NCBI GenBank assembly: GCA_000182565.2
Contig: KQ257451.1
DNA from: Spizellomyces punctatus DAOM BR117
Taxonomy: Eukaryota
DNA length: 19,564 nt
Reading direction: 5' to 3' (one strand)
Shown: positions 1,298 through 18,815 of the stretch, piece after piece
How positions within the stretch are numbered: position 1 is the stretch's first letter
How the letters are laid out: the number at the start of each line of letters is the position of its first letter
The notes under the pieces: generated by a model
The model's database searches: none
The model's input: the letters and a program-made list of their open reading frames with translations, nothing else
Told to the model about the DNA's origin: nothing
Program-made: the position numbers and the translations under genes

Positions 1298-3641
1298 ATG
1301 TCACTTTCCTGCGTGGCCGCTTTCGCGTCTCCAGTCATGCCAGAATCGCATAGAAAACTGGACACCTCAAGTTTAGAAAAGTCGGGTACTACCAAATCCG
1401 AACTCGAACGTAAGTCGGGCATATCTATGCTGAATTTCTTTTTCGTAATGACTCAATTCATACTTTACAGTGGTTTCGACCAAAGGCATCCATCCCTCTC
1501 TGCTCTCCAGTCTCACTTGGCCGATTTTGATACCTCTCCGGGCTGCCTCGCTCGCGTATACTGCTGCATCTGAAGTGGTCTATGTATGCGATCTCGGTCG
1601 ACACAACCTGTCAAATACCTGGACCGCCTTGAAAGCATATTATTGTGATCCTGGACATACCCGTCCTACGTGGAACTTGCCCTTCCATTTGGTAAGGGAT
1701 TGTTCAGCCCAGTGCTGTGCGCACTCTGACGGAATCACTAATAATATCCCAAATTTGCAGCTCTTGAAAACAATAAAGTCAAATCTCGAATACCCAGGCC
1801 ACACTCTAAATAAAATGCGAGGTTCGGCAGAATTTTTGTACGAAGTTACCATGCCGTGGAGTGTCCGAATTACACCGTTTCGATTCCACGTCAATCGTCA
1901 GATCCTTTTGGAACCAGAACGACAAGCTGCCCGCCACTCTTCGCTAGACTCGGACTTTGTAATCCCAGAAGAGTGCTCGGGTTCGGATGAATACGAATTG
2001 ACCGGCGAGTGGGTGGAGTGGAAGGATAAGAATGAGAGTGCGAACAAATCCGCGAATAAAGAGGACAAGGTGATCTTGTTCCTGCATGGGGGCGCGTTCC
2101 TCTGCGGAAGTCCAAAAACACACAGAAGTTTGGTATGGCGTATTGCAAAGGAAACTGGTGCCAGAATCTTTGGTAAGTCGTTGAATGTTGATCTATTGAT
2201 GCTTAAATTCCTTGCTAACTAACCGCAATGCTAGTTTTGAATTACCGACTTGCTCCCGAGCATCCATTCCCAGCCGCTATCCATGACGCCTTCGCGGCGT
2301 ATCTTTACTTGACCAATCCAGGTCATCCTGCGTTCTTGAAGCCTGGTGCTTTCTTCTCACCCAACACACCTCTACACCAACCTGTCTCACCACAATCCAT
2401 CGTGGTTATGGGTGACTCGGCAGGCGGGGGATTGTCTGCGGCGTTTCTGGTGTACATGAAGGATTTTCTGAAGGATAAAACTGGCGAAGCAATGTTTGAA
2501 CCGGTCCGGGGTGGCGTGCTTCTTTCGGTAGGTTTGTGGAAGGCAGCTAGTCATCTCGTAATCTTCTTCTGATTCTAACTGCTTTTTGCCGTCGCAGCCT
2601 TGGGTTGAGTTAACATGCAGTACAGAATCATGGGACTCAAACTACTCTACCGATTACCTCCCTGGTCGCCCCAACACCGTCTTTCACAGCATGTTCCCCA
2701 GTGAATCCGAGTCTCCACTAAATCCCGTATACTCTTACCTCTTTGGCCTGGGTGATGCTGGACGCAAACGAACTTTCATCACCCGAAGAAAGCGTCAATG
2801 TGTATGCAAAGCAGAGTCGACCTGCGATTGTGGAGGGGATTTTAAACCGATTGATATGGCAAGGAGAGATTCAGGAATTGATGTAATCTTGGAGACTGAG
2901 GAAACGGAGGATTGCAACCGTCCTCGGAACGTCCTGAACGTGAAGAGACGGTTGGATGAGGAAGAAGTTGTCTTCAGATTGGCCAAGCATCCGCTTGCGT
3001 CTCCTATCTATGCAGACTGTAGTGGCATGCCACCAATCTTGATTGTGAGTATACTGCGTCTTTGCTCCTCATGGCAAAGCATTAACGGTCATTCGGGTAT
3101 CATTAGCAAAGCGGAGATGCCGAGATGCTTCGAGACGAGTCAATGCTCCTTGCCCATCGCTTGGCTCTCGCCAACCCAGACCTGCACGAGCGGGGTTTCA
3201 TGAGACTTGAGCTCTACCGGTAAGCATCAAACATCTGCCTCAACGCTTCATTTTCTCCAATGCGCAAACTAATTTATCGCATCATTGAACAGTGACATGC
3301 CACATGTCTTCCAAGCATTCACTTTCCTTCATAGCGCCCAAACTGCCCTTAAGAACATGTCCGTCTTTATATCCTCACTCTTCAACTCTTCCCAGTACGA
3401 CACGGCACAAGGAAATCATGGCGTCGAGAGCGGAATAGTAGCCGTCGATTCATTCTTGTATCCTCCACCTTATTCACAGACTGCCACGGAGCCTACCATG
3501 GATGTAATGGAAGGTGTGGCGAGCATGAAGGCGAGCATGAAGGTGGTTGGTGCAGCCTTGGGCGGCGCGGTGGTCGAAGATGTACAAGATGCTGAGGGTG
3601 GGTGGCTGGTAGGAGATGGGATGTTGCATCCGTTCCTTTGA
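1298..3641 (+). CDS. Alpha/beta hydrolase of the hormone-sensitive lipase (HSL/GDXG, Abhydrolase_3) family, 671 aa. Exons 1298-1409, 1471-2172, 2235-2527, 2598-3044, 3107-3219, 3293-3641
   Basis: Five GT-AG introns (61, 62, 70, 62, 73 nt) join the ORF fragments in frame, giving 2016 nt. Motifs: oxyanion ILFLHGGAF, LNYRLAPEHPFPAAIHD, nucleophile GDSAGGGL, LLS|PW rebuilt across intron 3, LI|QSGDAEMLRDE (acid residue) and DMPHVFQ (catalytic His). Confidence 0.93.
3518..3541 (+). repeat. Perfect 12-nt tandem duplication in the hydrolase C-terminal tail (ASMK-ASMK)
   Basis: ggcgagcatgaa at 3518-3529 and 3530-3541. Confidence 0.9.
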
Positions 3642-4817: not shown

Positions 4818-5878
4818 GGCTTTGCTGGCAAGTTGGTTGTCGCTTAGTGAGAGCGTGGGAAAATACTTGAAATTTTCCCACGCCCAGTTCTCCTTACGTG
4901 AACTGCTTTTAGCGCGTTCTCCGCTCTTCCCCCGTCGTGCTGCACTCTTGAACTCGTTTACAAAAGCCATGGACTTTGACTTCTCTACGCTTGAGTAGCC
5001 TGCATCCACTGCGTTCTGTCCTGCATTTAGGATCGGTACGGCGACTTTAAGCGCCAGCTCAGTTTCTTTTGCATTATTCGCATCGTTACCCTCTCTTTCG
5101 ACTGCAGCACCACCGAAAACCCTTCTCGGCCCAGCTGCAACACTCTGCCGGTGGTGAGCACTCTTTCGTGTGCGTACCCGTTTTCGCCTCACTTGCATTT
5201 ATCCAATATAAACAATCGCATCGGGATGCCTCTCCCGCTTTTGTTGCACGGCTGAACTGCTGCTGGCGTTCGTCCAAAGTGAACATATACCCAAGAAACA
5301 TGGCAGAGCCGAAAACTAACTAACATAAACAAAAGTCACAACCTTTGTCGCGCTTGTTTTTTCCCTTGATAGCATCGCAGGCGTTATTCCTTCCTTCTTT
5401 CACTTTTTTCCATTGTCCAGGGAATGAGAGCGCCCTAGGGTTCCCCACCCGCTTGACCAAATCTTCCATCCACCAATCATTTCATTGAACTGGCCCGCCC
5501 TGCTCGTATCACCGCTCGCTTTCTAAAGACATATAAATAGCACAGTTGCGTGACAGCACCAAAGCAAGGGTTATGAATATGCCCTATTCAAAAACAGATA
5601 TTGCTGCGGATCTTTTCCCGCTTGACAACGCCAGGGCTCACAGACGCAAAGCACGCCACTGTACAGTTCAAGAAGATTGGTCGAGAATCGCTCAACGTTT
5701 TGAGGGATATTCGGTCATCATGCGCCTATTATTCAGGATGCAGGCTCTGTTATTGAAAGCATATGCATTATTTCCCCGACACATAAATGAGCTCCGTTCT
5801 TCCATTTCCCCCCGAACCAACAATCTTTTCAGAAAAAGCAGTCACCACTTACCCAAAGCCAAATCACCTTTGAAAAGA

Positions 5879-7461
5879 ATGTCCCAGCACGACATTGATC
5901 CAGCAATCATTGCAGCCTACTTGGATAGTCTCAAAGATCCAAAAACCAGAGCAGGCTACGAGAAACTTCTCAACGATCCAAAGGTTTCGGTAAACCTATG
6001 GGAAGGACAACTTGTCTTTGGCTCATACACATACGAAAGACCACCCAAACGGAAGCCGGATCCCAGCTGGGACGATGACAATGAGAACTTGTCTGACGCA
6101 AGCGCAGGATCCTCCTCCTCCTCCAAAGGAAGCTCCTCGTCAAAGCATTGGCAGGATATCATCAAAAAGCCCGCACTGAGTTCCACCGATCGCATGCGTA
6201 TTCGAAAGAAACTGCGATTCCACGCTGGTGCCGTCGAAGACGATGAGATGTGGAACCATTTTCATGATGACGGGTGTGGTATAACCCAAATAACTGATTT
6301 CATATACGTATCTGGGTAAGCAGATCAAAAGCGCTGAACAGTTTTAAACACCATGGTACATGGGTTCTTTGCTTACCATGGTTCATTCCAATAGACTGCA
6401 GCCAGTTGATCACTGTCGTTGCACCATTGATGCCCTCGGAATCATCCATTGCATCTCTATTGGCAACGATAAGGGCAAAGAGCAGCTCCCGGGCATCGAC
6501 ACTCTGCTCGTTGACGTAGGCGATTCAGCAAAAGAAGATATTATCACGTACTTTGACGCCTGTTTTGAACATATTGAAAAGGCACGGAAAGCAAAGGGGA
6601 AAATCCTTGTTTGTGACCTCTTTGGTAGAAGCCCTGCACCCGTTGTCATTTGCGCATACCTGATGAAGAAAACCAAATGCTCTCCCCGGAAGGCGTTTTA
6701 CTACGTATTTCAGAAAAAAAAGGATTTCAAGTAAGCATATTTGTAACAACTGCTCCAGAGATATTTATCAAGCTTACCTTTGTCAACAATGCAGACCCAA
6801 TCCCGCCTTCTGGGAGCAGTTGTGCCTGTACTCAATCATGAACCACTCCATCACCACAGCCACAGGCGAAAAGAAATCAATCTACCGTCGGTATCATTCG
6901 GCCCGCAAGCTAATCTGGGTGCATCTTAAGGATAAATGGTACCTGCAAGGATCACGGAGGAGGTTTCCGAACCTCAGTGACGACTGGCTTTTGAACCTCC
7001 GGTATCCAAAAGGGCATACTTGGAATTACCGACATTACGTATTCCAAGAGCTTGAGGCAGACGATTTCGGCAAACTCGACAATCCACTTGACGCCCATTA
7101 TGCTTGCAAGGATTGTTCGACCCCTCTCTTTGCTGAAAATAATCTGATGCCTTCATTCCATTTATATGAGCACCTACCGTTATATACCACAGCCCCATTG
7201 CTGGGTCGCCGAGGTCAACACCTTCTCGGCATATGTGCAGCACCAGACGCACAACCAGACAGCGGCCCGTACTTTATTGAACCGATGGACTGGATAGTGG
7301 TGCAAGTCCAGGACCGAAAAGCCCATCGCGGCGATATCCGCTGTCCGGGATGTAAGGTCAAACTAGGATCCTGGAACGCACATGAGGTGCTTGAGAATGG
7401 GGATGTGATGCTGGGAGCTTTCAAGGTGGAGAGGGACAAGGTTGTTTTGGGTGGGGATTAA
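5879..7461 (+). CDS. Yvh1/DUSP12-like dual-specificity phosphatase-fold protein with a C-terminal zinc-binding domain, predicted catalytically inactive, 479 aa. Exons 5879-6315, 6395-6730, 6795-7461
   Basis: DSP fold landmarks: ITQITDFIYVSG, LGIIHCISI, VDVGDSAKEDIITYFDACFEHI, KILV...VICAYLMK and FK|PNPAFWEQLCLY. Yvh1-type C-terminal domain: YACKDC, YFIEPMDW, GDIRCPGCKVKLGSWN, AFKV. Introns of 79 and 64 nt (GTAAGC..AG) give 1440 nt. The frame is open upstream with ATGs at 5573/5579, so the start is uncertain. Confidence 0.87.
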
Positions 7462-8764: not shown

Positions 8765-10609
8765 TTATTCACCAGTCAAAATGCCCACCGCGTCATCAAT
8801 ATTTCCACGACACTCAACCAAAACCTCTGCACTGACCAACAAATCATCAAACCCCATATTGCGCATCTGGCGAAGGTGGGTCAACAAATTTTCGGCTGTG
8901 TACGTGGTTGGCTGGTTTTGAGGATTGTTTCTTTCCACGATCGGTGTGCTGATAATCGGTTCGGTCGGCGCGAAAGGTCCTGGCAGAGTGGGAGGGCGCG
9001 GAGGTGGAGGTGAAGGCCTGGGCATACTCGGGGGATGAAATCTGGGGGGATTCGGAGGCCTGGGGAGGGGCATCGTCGCATAGGAATGATGATGAACGGG
9101 AGGGTGAGGTGGCGGTGGAGGAGGTGGAGGAGGAAAATAGGAAAAGTTCCAGTAATGCTGGGGTTGCGACGGAAGTGACATTCGATGACGAAGTTGAGAA
9201 TGGCGACGTCGTGTTCCGGCCGCATATGCCCCGGAGGTTTGCATTGTTGACCGACGATGCAGACCGAACGGGTGTTCAGGGTGTCGAGGTCCTTGTGGAT
9301 GTTCACGCACAGGAGGACAGGGCGCTTCAGCAACCTGCACCGACTGCTGGCGATCTGCAGACGGTACATCAACTCCGTTAGAAACAACGGGTAACGCAGA
9401 CAGAGGTTTCTCTTCCGTCTGATCAACATCGGCCAAGCGAGCACGCCGAGTACTCGTCATGGCCGTATCACACCCGAATCTGATCTCTGCATTCGAGGTT
9501 GCTGGTGCAGGATTGACTCGTATTTGCTCGGTTTCATTTTCCTCTGGTCGGCCAGTATTCGCGGAGCCATTAGCGGTCGACGCCTCCCTCAAGTATGTAC
9601 TCAACCATGAAGGCGAACTTTCCAAAGCTTGCATATTGGAACGTACAGTATTCGCAGAGCCATCAAAGGGCGACGACGCCCTCCAGTATGTACTCGAAGA
9701 TGAAGCGGAACTTTGCAAAGATTGGCAACTGGCACGTAGCTCCATAGGATTTTCTCCCAGTCGAACACACTTTGCAAACGCTTTGAGATTGGCCGGAGAC
9801 AAATCAAAGGGACGCTCTAGGATGGGTGGTGGTGGTGATACGGTATCTTGCTTTGAAGAATCCGAGTCCCAAGAGTCCACATTTGACATAAGAACTTCGC
9901 TAGGCGGAGGCGACAAGCACTTGACCTGTTCTGTGGTCGCATCCGCCACAGAATAGGCCTCCACATCGATATCAATAAGGGAATGTCCTACTTCCGGAAT
10001 ACTGGCTTGAGGATGATCATCAACATCCACATTTGATTTCACATGGGCTTTCTCGATAGCGGACGTATCTTCCTCGGTACAAACGGTCTTGTCGACGCAA
10101 TCTTCATTGGTCCCGCCAACGCCAGCTTCATTGGCATAAAGGGTTTCGTCAACATCAAGGTCCTCTTTCAGATCAAATTCCCATTCAGTATACCGATCCT
10201 CCAAACCAGCCAATGGAACTGCAGGTTTTTTGCCTTTATCTTTTTTTGCTCCAGAAGACTCAATACCAGTCTCACCCACATACCGACCAGTCTCATCCAG
10301 ATCCCGAGCATACCGCTCCTCCAACTCAGCCCATACAGCGGATTCATTAACAGGTTCTTTGCCTTTATCTTCCCTTGCCACAACCCAAAGCTTTACTAAA
10401 TGCCCCTTTGCAGATATATCCAATATTTCATCATCCCGGTCAACAAGGACCTCGTCCCCGTCTTCATCTTTCCAAAAGACCTTGATACCCAGTGACGGCG
10501 AAATGGAAAAGAGTGTGCGAATCCTATCTTCCAGTGCAGACCAGCTTGGTGGCGCGGCAAACGTAAAGCGTCGCAGAGTATCCTCGTAAGAGACCTTGAA
10601 GGAAAGCAT
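8765..10609 (-). CDS. PB1-domain and C-terminal UBA-domain protein (p62/SQSTM1-NBR1-like architecture without ZZ/FW), 614 aa, no coding introns
   Basis: N-terminal PB1: FKVSY (conserved Lys), RRF and the acidic OPCA motif WKDEDGDEVLVDRDDEI. C-terminal UBA-like LRQMRNMGFDD..EVLVECRGNIDDAVGIL with the MGF motif. The middle is acidic, Ser-rich and then His/Pro-rich. Continuous 1845-nt ORF. Confidence 0.88.
   Translation of the reverse strand: MLSFKVSYEDTLRRFTFAAPPSWSALEDRIRTLFSISPSLGIKVFWKDEDGDEVLVDRDDEILDISAKGHLVKLWVVAREDKGKEPVNESAVWAELEERYARDLDETGRYVGETGIESSGAKKDKGKKPAVPLAGLEDRYTEWEFDLKEDLDVDETLYANEAGVGGTNEDCVDKTVCTEEDTSAIEKAHVKSNVDVDDHPQASIPEVGHSLIDIDVEAYSVADATTEQVKCLSPPPSEVLMSNVDSWDSDSSKQDTVSPPPPILERPFDLSPANLKAFAKCVRLGENPMELRASCQSLQSSASSSSTYWRASSPFDGSANTVRSNMQALESSPSWLSTYLREASTANGSANTGRPEENETEQIRVNPAPATSNAEIRFGCDTAMTSTRRARLADVDQTEEKPLSALPVVSNGVDVPSADRQQSVQVAEAPCPPVREHPQGPRHPEHPFGLHRRSTMQTSGAYAAGTRRRHSQLRHRMSLPSQPQHYWNFSYFPPPPPPPPPHPPVHHHSYATMPLPRPPNPPRFHPPSMPRPSPPPPRPPTLPGPFAPTEPIISTPIVERNNPQNQPTTYTAENLLTHLRQMRNMGFDDLLVSAEVLVECRGNIDDAVGILTGE
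9542..9727 (-). repeat. Internal tandem duplication of 93 nt (31 aa) in the PB1-UBA gene
   Basis: CQSLQSSASSSSTYWRASSPFDGSANTVRSN versus MQALESSPSWLSTYLREASTANGSANTGRPE, 16/31 identical. DNA cagtattcgc(g/a)gagccat occurs at 9553 and 9646. Confidence 0.85.
10110..10369 (-). repeat. Internal tandem duplication of about 40-43 aa just after the PB1 domain
   Basis: DKGKEP..AELEERY..DLDET..Y..E.G versus DKGKKP..AGLEDRY..DLDVDET.Y..E.G. DNA caggtt(t/c)tttgcctttatct occurs at 10222 and 10351; ataccg(a/c)tcctccaa occurs at 10190 and 10310. Confidence 0.8.
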
Positions 10610-12294: not shown

Positions 12295-14032
12295 TTACCA
12301 AATCATTCCTTCCATGTTATCCTCAGTAGAACGCAACCCCTTTTGTCTCTCCCGTCGGTTCCATCCCAAGCACCTCTCTAGGCCCTTGAACCAGTCTTTG
12401 CTCTGGTCTTCCCAGCAAACTGTGGGAACAGGCCAAACAGCCGCTCGGACCACAACGCCATCACCACGTTCCAGGCACACTCTATGACGTCCATCAAAGC
12501 TAGCCCAAGCTGTTGTTCGACTGTCTTCAGGAACCATGATACAAACTTCCATTGTATCAGGGAGTATCATTGGGCGGAAGGAAAGGGTATGGGGGCAGAT
12601 GGGTGTTACGAGGATGGCCGAGACGTCGGGGTGGACGAGTGATCCCCCAGCGGAAAGGGAATAAGCGGTGGATCCGGTTGGTGTAGAAATGGTCAAACCG
12701 TCAGCATGAATGGTGGTGAGATGGTGTTCGTTACCGTACAGTTCGAGTTGAGACATGTAGGGTGATGGCCCACGGTCAATGGTAAGATCATTGAGGATTT
12801 GAAAGGTCTGGTTATGATCGTCGGCCACGTTCGGGTCCAGTGACTGAGCGTCAGAACCTTGTTGTCGTCGGTGACGGATAACAGTGCAGCTAAATCGCAT
12901 CCGAAAGTTCATTCGCATCCCTCTTTCCATACCAGTCCCAACAGCGAGGTCCTGAACGCAATTTCGAAATCCGGTAAAATCAAACGTTGTCAGGAATCCG
13001 AGGCTTCCGAGTCGGAAAGGCAAAATAGGCGGGCACTTTTTCTGAAACATCCAAGCTGCGTACAGGACAGTTCCGTCACCGCCAAGGGTAATGACAAAGT
13101 CCACGCACGAGGCGGATTTGGAGGAACAAAACTCTGGAGTCCAAAATTGAAGTTTTTCAGAAGGATTCTCGTCGCTGTTTTGCGAGGATGGTTTGGGAGA
13201 TGCAGAGCGGAGGTGGTCCATCAAATCATTATATTGGAACGCATCATCCTCTTCCAGTTTAGATTCGACGAGGCTGTAGACAAAGGAATTGCTCATGAGC
13301 GAGCAGGCCTCCAAGGCGAAAGAGCAATTCTATAACTACTTACACAGTCATTCCAAGATCCAAGATTAACCATTTTGTCACCTCCTTTGTGATCTTGACC
13401 AATTCTTGGTCGTGAACCTTGGTCACAATCAATACTGTTTTAGGTGTGGTGTCCCAAATCAGCTGAGCCCGTCCAATTTTCTTTGCAATTTCACGCAGAC
13501 CAACAGCTGTCTTTGCCAGCTCGCTGTGTGAGTTGCTTCGCGATCGTCGGATAGGAAAGTCCTTTCGTGTGCGGTGGGAAGGAGATGGAAAGGCGCGGTC
13601 GTCTCCTTCCGCGCTCCAAGTGTTTGGACTGTTGGTCGGAGATTGGTGTAGCGAGTTGCTGTCAGTTGATCCGGGAGACGGGTTAGGAGAGTTGGTGTCG
13701 ATCGAGCTGAATTCCAGATTGTCGAGATTCTCTTCCTCAACAGACGCCAATCCACATCCAGCAGAATCTACCAATTCAAGTCGGTAAAAGAGAGCTTCAA
13801 TCTTTGGCGTCAAAGGCGACGGTGTAGTCTCCAACAACGGTCGTTTGCTTGTAATGGGGGGAAATTCGCGAGGCGGAGGCGGGAGGTTGCCCGTTACAAC
13901 CGAAAGACTTGGAGATCCAGGCATGTGCTTGGAACGCCCTGGGGTGCACGACGAAGGGGAACCGGTATCAAATGATTGTGTGCATGAATCTATTTGCAGT
14001 ATTGGTGGATGAATGGCGGCAATCGGAGGCAT
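12295..14032 (-). CDS. ATP-NAD(H) kinase, Utr1/Yef1-like (probably cytosolic), 555 aa. Exons 14032-13344, 13273-12295
   Basis: Motifs VLIVTK, DFVITLGGDGTVL, GSLGFLT, ILND, ADGLTISTPTGSTAYSLSAGGSLVHP, TPICPHTLSFRP, SFDGR and W...L..CLGWN. A 70-nt intron (GTAAGT..TACAG) joins the two ORFs in frame, giving 1668 nt. Long Ser/Pro-rich N-terminal extension. Confidence 0.96.
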
Positions 14033-14049
14033 GTCCTCTATTTCACTTG

Positions 14050-14180
14050 CAGAGTGGAGAAAGGTATGAAGAGTTTGGCAGGCCGAGGAAGGGGCAAAAG
14101 AGAAAGGAGCAAGAAAGGAGGGGGAAACGGGAAACTATACAAGAGAAGTGGGAAGAGACAAGGGGGGATAGCTCTATATA
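14050..14180 (-). promoter_or_regulatory. Candidate NAD kinase core promoter: TATATA followed by a CT-rich tract
   Basis: TATATA at 14175-14180, then a pyrimidine-rich stretch on the coding strand (about 14170-14050) leading towards ATG 14032. This arrangement is common in fungal promoters. Confidence 0.4.
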
Positions 14181-15531: not shown

Positions 15532-17382
15532 ATGTCGATCCTAGCAAACATACCAGTTATCGGTCCCCTCTTCTCTTCAGATAAGGATCAGTTATTAAAA
15601 GACTATGATTACATTGTCGTTGGTGGTGGTTCGGCTGGGTGTGTGGTAGCTGCACGGTTATCAGAGGACAAGAATATCAATGTGCTCTTACTCGAAGCCG
15701 GTGGGGATGGAAATACATTTGCCATACGAACGCCCGGGGTGTATTTTGATCTGCAAATGACCGAGGTGGACTGGCAGATAAGGACACGGCCGCAGAAAGG
15801 AATGGGTGGGCGAATTGGATTCTGGTATGTCTTATAGAGGTCATTAGCGCAATCGTGCGGATGTTACTCATTTTCTGGTTATTGTGTATGTGAAAGGCCC
15901 CGCGGTAAAGTTCTCGGTGGCTGTTCGTCCATCAACGCCATGCTCTATGTCAGAGGTGATCGAGCAGATTATGACGGATGGGCAGCAGTCGGGTGCGACG
16001 GATGGGCGTATGAAGATGTGTTGCCCTACTTTAAAAAATCTGAAGATTGTCGCATCCCCAGTCTCTCCCAACGTGAATATCACGGCACGGATGGCCCACT
16101 GAACATTGAATACGCTAGTGGAGGAGATCCGAACCCGTTAACAAAAGAGTTCATCTCTGCATTCCGGCAAGTGACAGGAATCACAAACGATGACTACAAC
16201 TCGGGAGACGGCTACGGAGCATCTATTAGCTTTCAGACAGTGCAGAATGGCGTGCGATGCGACACGGCTCGAGCCTTCCTGTTCAATGGAGAGAAACCAG
16301 CTATTCGCCGGCCCAATTTGACAGTCATCACCGGTGCACACGTCACAAGGATTGGGGTGGAGAACGGCAAGACTACTGGAGTATATTTCAGATCCTCTCC
16401 ACATGGAACATCGAAAGAAGCATTCATGACCCTTCCAGAGACATTCATTCCCGTCAGAGAGCAAGTCATTTTGAGCGCTGGCGCAGTTCACACTCCTGCC
16501 ATTCTGATGTACTCTGGCATCGGTCCTCAAGATCACCTCAAGAGCGTGGGAATCAAGGTGATAAAGCATCTCCCAGGTGTGGGCCGCAACCTCCAAGATC
16601 ACCTCTTTGTCGGGCTCGCATTCAAGGAATACCAGGGCGTGGCATACACAAGCAGGTTGCTCGACGTGGCGCGATACCTTGGGAAATACTTTCTGCATAG
16701 CACCGGCCCTGTCGCTGGTTCTCCCGTTGAGGCATTAGCGTTTATGGATTCTGCTGTAAACACCTCTGCCCAGAATGGAAGAAAGCGCCCAGACCTACAA
16801 TTCCACATTCTCCCAGCTCGCGTCACCAAACAAGCCCACTATGCTAAAACCAATGTCAATCCTATACAGCCAGAGTTATCTCACGATCACGGTCTGACAG
16901 TGTTTCCCACGCTTCTCCTTCCGGAATCCTCTGGATACATTGAATTGAGCAGCAGTCATCCCCTTGACGATATCCACGTTGAGCCAAATTACCTTTCAGC
17001 AGAATACGACATCCAAGTGCTGATGGACGGAATATTCAAATGTCGCGAAATTGCAAAGTCCCAAGCGCTCGAACAGTATAAACTGGAAGAAATTATTGAC
17101 ACCACCATCCCATTTCCACCAGACTCACCCGAGTACGTTCGTGAATACGTGAAAAGGCAGGCCATAACAGTCTATCACCCGGTTGGCACTGCTAAAATGG
17201 GACGAGCTGACGATCCAATGGCGGTGGTTGATTCCAGGTGTAGAGTCTTTGGTATTGAAGGGTTGAGAGTGGCGGATGCGAGTGTTATGCCACGGATCGT
17301 AGCGGCTAATACGAATGCCGCCTGTATTATGATTGGGGAGAAGGTTGCGGACATGATAAAGAAGGATCGGCAGAAAAGTTGA
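15532..17382 (+). CDS. GMC oxidoreductase (FAD-dependent; choline/alcohol dehydrogenase-like, His/Asn catalytic pair), 592 aa. Exons 15532-15824, 15897-17382
   Basis: FAD-binding [49 protein letters not shown] is rebuilt across a 72-nt intron (GTATGT..AAAG). Also [37 protein letters not shown] and [17 protein letters not shown]. Confidence 0.96.
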
Positions 17383-17553: not shown

Positions 17554-18815
17554 TCACAGGCGTGCCGTCTTGTCAGAATAGGGGACGACCACGAACCCCA
17601 ATCTGGGAAAGTGAACATCCGTCTCAAAGCCCAATTCTTGATTTTCGACTCTCACCACGACCTCTGCTTGATCCAACTTGACCAACTTTCCAACAACCGG
17701 TACCCTTCCCGTGTCATCAGGGGTGACCACCACCAACCCGCCAATCTGCCGGCCCACTTCATCCGGCTCACTCTTTCCAATAGCATCCACCCCCTTCCGT
17801 ACCCTCCGGGCAACGTCCAACGCTTCTTCAGCCGTGATGGGTTTCCCCAATGACGAAGGACGCCCAATGAGGCCATAAAGCCTCTGATACCATTCCAAAA
17901 CCTTTTTCACATCTCCATACGAACCATCCTCAAGCCGCTTTCGTTCGTCAGGAAAGGTCCGCAAAAACCACACACACATGACGGCATGAATATCCGCAGT
18001 CGTCGGACGGGGTGTATCCAAAATGAATGAACGTCCATCAGAGAGCTGAGCGTTAATGGTTGACAGCGAGATACGAACTTGGTCCCGAGCAATCGGACGA
18101 TTTTCTTTTGCTTTTTCCACCGAGATTTGTGAACGGTTCGAGAATTTCGCGCGGTCGGACAGAAAGACTGGTGGGAGGCTTTCGTAGGGTAGGAGAGCAA
18201 CAGCGTTCTAAAAAAGAAAAAGAATATTCCAATAAGTCAACACAGAGTCATGTTCACATCTTTTACCTCATACATACCGGAAAAAAGTGTTTATCACACC
18301 ACATCCGATACGCAAACTCCAAAGCACCATCGACATTCCCCTTTTGATCTTTGGGCAAAAGACTAGGTTCCGGAAACCGTCTCTCCAATTCCTCCAAAAT
18401 CAATGCCGTATCGCAGTATATATCCGCTCCTGAATTTCAAAGCAGAGTCAATATAACTTTAGTCTTGACGAAAACTTGCCACCCTTTTGTGAATTTCTCT
18501 TTATACTGACCTATTTGCAGAATGGGAATCTTTCGATACCCTCCTGCCAACGGTATCGTCGCCTTTCGCGGCTGTAGCAACAAAAAGCCCTAGATGAGTC
18601 TTTGAGACATACTCTTATCAACAACAACAAGTACACACCGGGTACGGCGGAACAATCAACGACCGGAATGGAATACCCTTCAATGCCAACGCCAAGATAA
18701 TCTTTTGAGCATAGGGCGATGCATGGTAATGGTGCTGTTTTCTAAAAGTCAGATCCCTGCAAATAAAAGGCCAAAAACCCTAAAAGTTCCTTACTAGAAT
18801 GACTTCTTCTGACAT
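17554..18815 (-). CDS. Glutathione S-transferase-like protein with an extra beta-rich C-terminal domain (..VHFPRLGF..) and C-terminal ARL, 327 aa. Exons 18815-18795, 18734-18639, 18571-18511, 18429-18278, 18207-17554
   Basis: Four GT-AG introns (60, 67, 81, 70 nt) give MSEEVIL|HHYHASPYAQKIILALALKGIPF..PPYP|PRKATIPLAGGYRKIPILQIG|ADIYCDTALILEELERRFPEP (GST N-terminal thioredoxin fold). PTTADI is the GST-C N-capping box. Total 984 nt in frame. Confidence 0.92.

Follow-up and report, generated by a model that had tools for sequence, protein, structure and literature searches.

The analyzed window, a stretch of 19,564 nucleotides of contig KQ257451.1 (assembly GCA_000182565.2), comes from Spizellomyces punctatus DAOM BR117, a soil chytrid fungus, and harbors a gene for a predicted protein of the Yvh1/DUSP12 type with a degenerate catalytic loop. 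The main features of the gene are the following, where P0002 denotes the ortholog from a sister species:

5879-7461, plus strand: the gene, three exons with a 479 residue product (P0001), identical to NCBI SPPG_00870
5879-6315, plus strand: exon 1, Met1 to Gly146, whose start agrees with the N-terminus of P0002
6050-6277, plus strand: part of the N-terminal extension (residues 58-133) conserved with P0002
6316-6394, plus strand: intron 1, GT-AG, 79 nt, phase 2, within the Gly codon of the "LYLG"-type strand
6395-6730, plus strand: exon 2, core of the dual-specificity phosphatase (DSP) domain (PF00782, 53.4 bits)
6522-6524, plus strand: Asp189 at the general-acid position, present in both species and an Asp in 147 of 149 other hits
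6609-6638, plus strand: degenerate P-loop, residues 218-227, V-C-D-L-F-G-R-S-P-A, from translation and alignment
6731-6794, plus strand: intron 2, GT-AG, 64 nt, phase 2, immediately before the PN motif
6795-7461, plus strand: exon 3, comprising the remainder of the phosphatase domain, a YRR helix of the Yvh1 type, the lengthened linker and the zinc-binding domain, together with the stop codon
7096-7449, plus strand: Yvh1-type zinc-binding domain, residues 359-476, by its match to yeast Yvh1 (6n8m_Y)
7390-7398, plus strand: Leu-Glu-Asn in place of the canonical Cys-x-Cys (Leu-Glu-Asp in P0002)

Using its own DNA as query the gene is single-copy in the genome, and exon 3 matches only itself. Upstream of the start, the reading frame of exon 1 continues without a stop over about 100 codons (5576-5878) and contains in-frame ATGs; the N-terminus of P0002 favors the start at 5879, a longer protein form being possible. 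At position 5944 one contig of run X9 shows G for A, a synonymous difference (third position of Lys22) at depth 2 that may be an error. Among the neighbors is an intronless open reading frame (8765-10606, minus strand) with an N-terminal PB1 domain, a Pro-rich part and an end that we take to be UBA-like, whose 3' RNA tags are strong and whose 5' part carries a ChIP peak (target not given). An alpha/beta hydrolase (1452-2222, plus strand), a NAD kinase (12295-14134, minus strand), a GMC oxidoreductase (15838-17382, plus strand) and a weak GST C-terminal match (17554-18207, minus strand) are also found in the window, with no apparent functional link to SPPG_00870.

The whole protein scores 67.3 bits against PF00782 (cut-off 33.5), its phosphatase domain covering residues 134-273, and the translation of exon 3 matches residues 232-318 of yeast Yvh1 (6n8m_Y, E 1.8e-5), the sole PDB hit below E 0.001. 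The protein has its phosphatase domain, its YRR helix and its C-terminal zinc domain in the order seen in Yvh1/DUSP12 proteins (6n8m, 4ki9 and SPPG_08345, the canonical copy of this genome). A structural model built from a 29-row alignment (A1) reached a pLDDT of 72.7, with residues 131-280 mostly at 83-98 and one block at 71, compared to 36.3 for the single-sequence AlphaFold model. Its top match in VIA is DUSP12 (4ki9; Z 22.5, rmsd 1.7, 156 aligned), followed by Cryptococcus Yvh1 (7ezn; Z 21.8), the gap to other DSPs being small (human STYX, 2r0b, has Z 20.9) and the modeled rmsd to most DSP hits lying between 1.3 and 2.5. Foldseek ranks DUSP5 and DUSP14 best and the PDB sequence search DUSP28, while the Atlas, through its own model as well as its feature search, indicates DUSP12 clusters. 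It should be noted that the phosphatase domain takes up all fold-search hits, and that the DUSP12 likeness of the model is partly circular, because AlphaFold built it from Yvh1 homologs. Sequence and model together support SPPG_00870 as a Yvh1/DUSP12-type protein, with a DSP fold that the model predicts to be retained.

Concerning the catalytic loop, SPPG_00870 was aligned with its 150 best HMMER hits, and conservation was counted over 149 of them, leaving out P0002. The loop departs from HCX5R(S) by a Cys instead of His at residue 219 (6612-6614; His in 147 of 149 other hits), an Asp instead of the catalytic Cys at residue 220 (6615-6617; Cys in 148), a Pro instead of the invariant Arg at residue 226 (6633-6635; Arg in all 149) and an Ala instead of Ser at residue 227 (6636-6638; Ser in 144). 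SPPG_00870 retains Gly223 (149 of 149 other hits) and Ser225 (147 of 149), as well as the AYL and PN..F..QL motifs. Residues 218-234 are ungapped in all 151 aligned rows, which bears out the original prediction that V-C-D-L-F-G-R-S-P-A at 6609-6638 is to be read in the natural register of the motif; its description of frame, splice sites, general-acid Asp and flanking motifs as intact also holds, given the open frame, the GT-AG introns, Asp189, AYL and PN..F..QL. Since Cys and Arg are both essential to protein tyrosine phosphatase chemistry (PMC10245925), SPPG_00870, with both substituted, and P0002, with only the Arg substituted, are both predicted to be catalytically dead. As a prediction, the claim of a catalytically dead Yvh1 paralog is hence upheld, the loop lacking Cys and Arg and a canonical YVH1 coexisting in the genome. 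Three unrelated DSP hits (P0036, P0073 and P0079) deviate from HCX5R too, one with Ser for Cys and two lacking the His only.

The sole close relative of SPPG_00870 is P0002 from Spizellomyces sp. 'palustris', 81% identical, whose loop reads V-H-C-L-F-G-R-S-P-A. Arg-to-Pro and Ser-to-Ala are common to both species, and the loss of His-Cys is found in S. punctatus only; P0002 having kept His-Cys beside the shared Pro, the arginine would have been lost first and the cysteine later. Conservation of the substituted loop, which the original prediction had made a test of its reading, therefore stands for Arg-to-Pro and Ser-to-Ala and fails for Cys-to-Asp, which is absent from P0002. An intact loop in reads or orthologs had been named as the finding that would speak against a dead protein: the ortholog has His-Cys yet a Pro for the Arg, and DNA run X19 covers the bin of the loop about 3-fold with no variant listed, a support that is weak because a variant is listed only from 3 reads on. 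Read evidence comes from 4 of 24 runs, among which neither the X8 nor the X9 contig pieces overlap the loop. Searches for further orthologs returned only the known pair with word-based methods (2 of 147 and 2 of 5997 candidates), no match scoring between 868 and 73 bits with HMMER over 1.84 billion representatives, and 0 of 18 and 0 of 343 confirmed pattern matches in two metagenome scans. A query with canonical YVH1 likewise yielded no further Spizellomycetales protein at E 1e-40, so that "genus-restricted" has to be taken as a lower bound. SPPG_00870 is a real, narrowly distributed paralog and a predicted pseudophosphatase, of a family known from two sequences.

The separate canonical YVH1 that the original prediction proposed to look for is indeed present. 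In a genome scan, 9 of 15 scored candidates matched PF00782, one of them being SPPG_08345 (locus L007, protein P0118), with the loop HCVAGISRS, full zinc ligands and six introns. Intron 1 of SPPG_00870 coincides in alignment column and phase with intron 1 of this gene, and intron 2 with its intron 5; thus both introns of SPPG_00870 fall on two of the six canonical ones, with a rough chance probability of 4e-5 to 6e-4, and L001, L002 and L003, the three DSP genes that can be compared in this genome, are uninterrupted at both places. The common intron positions support a duplication of YVH1. The canonical intron at L007:1442-1499 splits the catalytic Cys codon (phase 2), which hides HCX5R from an unspliced six-frame reading, and the paralog has no intron there. 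A further locus (L008, G000:C12:812603-812812, minus strand) gives a weak DSPc match with an apparent FHCMQG, intron, GKDRS loop, and is probably a Rit1-type initiator tRNA phosphoribosyl transferase domain.

The zinc-binding domain is homologous in sequence to Yvh1's cysteine-rich domain at the C-terminus (blastp against P0118, E 1e-5) and has been remodeled. In Yvh1 the ligands serve two zinc ions, and the eighth of them is one His. The other ligands correspond to the seven conserved Cys described for this domain (PMC9404827). In SPPG_00870, Cys362, Cys365, Cys441 and Cys444 are in register with canonical ligands, His380 and Cys405 are common to both species at positions shifted by 2 and 9 residues, and the second site has no Cys-x-Cys pair; of eight ligands two are lost and two displaced, and the full two-zinc set is absent. 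Among the 74 other zinc-domain hits of sufficient length, 63 keep the Cys-x-Cys, 8 of 82 such hits having been left out as too short or not matching the pattern. Net charge of the domain is -2, vs +4 in the canonical copy, and the FIEP..W motif is retained in both species. From its ligands, the domain probably binds one zinc.

At the other end, SPPG_00870 has an N-terminal extension of about 130 residues that is absent from canonical Yvh1, and the linker before the zinc domain is lengthened relative to it. Within the extension, residues 58-133 comprise a Ser-rich acidic linker followed by a basic two-helix segment, with 28 of 31 and 42 of 45 positions identical to P0002. This level of identity (90-93%) exceeds that of the phosphatase domain (80%) and that of the whole canonical YVH1 (89%). 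Helices are predicted at residues 86-95 and 102-116 (pLDDT about 65-70), and the net charge is +7 over residues 86-116 and +9 over residues 274-335. The extension matches no Pfam family, and residues 1-135 have no Atlas hit above 0.79.

The explanation that we favor, and consider reasonably probable, is that SPPG_00870 is a YVH1 duplicate turned into a non-catalytic binding protein. YVH1 would have duplicated and the copy then diverged very fast; Arg-to-Pro and Ser-to-Ala would have wrecked the phosphate cradle prior to the species split, and the useless His-Cys would have been lost afterwards in S. punctatus alone. The protein would fold as a phosphatase-shaped scaffold with a C-terminal domain that probably holds one zinc, and may bind a new partner through surfaces not present in canonical Yvh1, namely the basic helices of the N-terminal extension and the basic, extended linker. 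Judging from charge, the best guess for this partner is RNA or a ribonucleoprotein, while the canonical copy would retain the Mrt4-release job.

An alternative of some weight, although we regard it as unlikely, is that SPPG_00870 binds the pre-60S particle at the Yvh1 site, where it would serve as a back-up Mrt4 release factor or compete with canonical Yvh1. Yeast Yvh1 can do without catalysis in this role, the zinc domain being what 60S binding and Mrt4 release require (PMC2753163), and the FIEP..W motif and four Cys ligands are retained in both species. Yeast Phe283 is needed for Yvh1 function, its replacement by Leu abolishing function and being dominant-negative (PMC9404827), and Tyr417 occupies this position in the alignment with yeast Yvh1. 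However, both species lack the Cys-x-Cys common among other zinc-domain hits, the first site has its His and Cys displaced, the zinc domain has gone from positive to negative net charge, the stem branch is very long and, for a ribosome factor, RNA levels are very low (see below for both). The 60S scaffold or decoy role put forward in the original prediction is made doubtful by a zinc domain with no second-site Cys-x-Cys and with weaker positive charge.

Regarding selection, SPPG_00870 and P0002 show 81 differences over 443 aligned positions (residues 31-476, gaps omitted), which were compared with neutral evolution simulated on the actual coding sequence (2 x 1000 runs), assuming uniform rates, placing all change on one lineage and with P0002 being a predicted model. 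The mean BLOSUM score of the differences is +0.07, vs -0.57 or -0.51 under neutrality, and was equally high in 0 and 2 of 1000 runs; the differences were as clustered in only 4 and 3 of 1000, and the lack of a stop codon was matched in 9 and 12 of 1000. Those requiring two or more base changes number 22, vs about 4 expected, and only the longest identical run is not unusual in the simulation (P about 0.25). Neutrality being rejected on four of the five measures, the comparison supports purifying selection and rejects neutral decay, and the earlier claim of a maintained protein, not a pseudogene, is supported as far as selection goes.

These data bear directly on a second alternative, which we find improbable, namely that the duplicate is under relaxed selection and decaying to a functionless pseudogene. 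Catalytic residues and zinc ligands have been lost stepwise, and the gene has diverged about twice as much as canonical YVH1 (81% vs 89% identity between the two species, a level slightly above the 77% of the canonical linker), as a decaying copy would. Expression points in the same direction, since in RNA run X18 the sense depth at the 3' end is 0.85 and 0.4, vs 56 for the neighboring gene, i.e. about 2% of it and similar to the antisense signal nearby; X18, of which 6% was read and which apparently consists of 3'-end tags, shows no spliced reads across the introns of SPPG_00870. The 5' end has no ChIP peak and the neighboring gene has one, in runs for which condition and ChIP target are not given. 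The faster divergence and the faint RNA signal also count against the binding protein that we favor. Against decay stand, besides the rejection of neutrality, frames that are open in both species with all gaps in-frame and an N-terminal extension with 90-93% identity over residues 58-133. Expression of SPPG_00870 is probably weak or confined to a single life stage.

Very improbable is that some weak or atypical activity persists through Cys219 and Arg224 acting as a CX4R motif (CX3R in the sister species). Neisseria NMA1982, a CX4R protein that is active with a kcat of 4.4e-5 per second (PMC10245925), likewise has Cys and Arg five residues apart in the loop region, and Asp189 and Arg224 are present in both Spizellomyces species. 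The NMA1982 loop, however, is one residue shorter, so that its Cys and Arg superimpose on the canonical positions (PMC10245925), whereas that of SPPG_00870 is full-length and ungapped, with Cys219 in the His column and Arg224 in a variable column, both displaced; it has no shortened P-loop of the NMA1982 type. An Arg at 224 also occurs in 11 of 149 other hits, all of which have Arg at 226 too, and as the Cys-Arg spacing differs between both species no single alternative site is conserved.

The phylogenetic trees bring up a chimera, in which another DSP subfamily would have supplied the phosphatase domain and Yvh1 the zinc domain. Free trees of the phosphatase domain place SPPG_00870 nearest P0007, a DSP that lacks a zinc domain and whose loop is similar (SH-aLRT 89); the best PDB sequence and Foldseek hits, all DUSPs other than DUSP12, would suit such an origin. 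We nevertheless give it little credence, because both phosphatase-domain introns match YVH1, a tree that keeps all zinc-domain proteins together is 7.9 log-likelihood units better than the free tree, and the Yvh1-type helix is present after the phosphatase domain. Trees constrained to group the pair with Spizellomyces YVH1 are not rejected (p-AU 0.45 and 0.43), and the stem branch of the pair is about 4 vs 0.86 for canonical YVH1 in one tree, and about 2 vs 0.69 in another, the former being a quick tree; the trees used 25-65 selected rows out of 163. The intron positions, our best evidence, favor descent from YVH1, which the trees neither show nor reject. Finally, that the Cys-to-Asp change is an assembly error is scarcely credible, since, although it is found in one assembly only, with His-Cys in P0002 and a read depth at the site of only about 3, it would take a minimum of four substitutions across both codons or a pair of 3-base indels that compensate each other, the DNA reads list no variant, and even if true the shared Arg-to-Pro would still predict a dead protein.

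The non-catalytic duplicate that we favor can be compared to known systems. With canonical YVH1 it shares the two intron positions, the general-acid Asp and the FIEP..W motif, and it differs from Yvh1/DUSP12 proteins by the absence of CX5R and of the second-site Cys-x-Cys, by its additional N-terminal residues and by its longer linker; over the phosphatase domain it is only about 27% identical to the canonical copy. As neither CX5R nor the full ligand set is present, we classify it as a Yvh1-derived pseudophosphatase and not as Yvh1. With STYX-type proteins (2r0b) it has in common a DSP fold with a dead loop. Human STYX has the Cys replaced by Gly, keeps the Arg and can still bind phosphosites; SPPG_00870 has lost the Arg and carries a zinc domain, and with the Arg gone and an Asp in the pocket the S. 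punctatus protein would be a poor phosphosite trap, unlike STYX. The genome has a separate gene that we take, from its motifs, to be STYX-like (L002, G000:C3:538441-538920, minus strand), with an intact HCNSGISRS loop (CX5R), in contrast to human STYX and certain fungal Styx proteins, which are dead. Replacement of the Arg by Leu has been described for fungal Styx variants (PMC13216928).

The original prediction knew of no described fungal Yvh1-type pseudophosphatase; "CC1-type Yvh1" pseudophosphatase candidates have, however, been reported from filamentous and dimorphic ascomycetes by Pongpom et al. 2026 (PMC13216928). Like SPPG_00870 these have a disrupted or missing HCX5R, are lineage-restricted and were predicted to be inactive from sequence and models; they differ by their ascomycete hosts, one being strain-specific, and the passages on them mention neither extra paralogs beside an intact copy nor zinc-ligand loss (PMC13216928). 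The words "chytrid" and "Spizellomyces" are absent from that article and from its two supplements, a count that may miss image content (PMC13216928). Literature on SPPG_00870 or on chytrid phosphatomes was not found in a search that had most subscription journals outside its reach. Motif-disrupted fungal Yvh1 is hence already known in ascomycetes, and no chytrid case was found.

Dead DSP paralogs are a familiar class, and the finding opens no new pathway by itself. A more daring idea, to which we assign a small chance, is that the dead, one-zinc paralog still attaches to pre-60S or mature 60S subunits and, in a single life stage such as the zoospore, blocks or slows the exchange of Mrt4 for P0. 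If true, such stage-specific docking would be a built-in chytrid brake on ribosome maturation, and the paralog a natural counterpart of the dominant-negative yeast Phe283Leu allele. The Yvh1 phosphatase site is conserved across eukaryotes although yeast ribosome maturation needs the zinc domain only (PMC2753163). Here an intact YVH1 stands beside a copy in which catalysis appears to have been lost in two datable steps and the zinc domain rebuilt, a natural experiment, and domain swaps between both copies in yeast could reveal which ligands and surfaces are needed for Mrt4 release.
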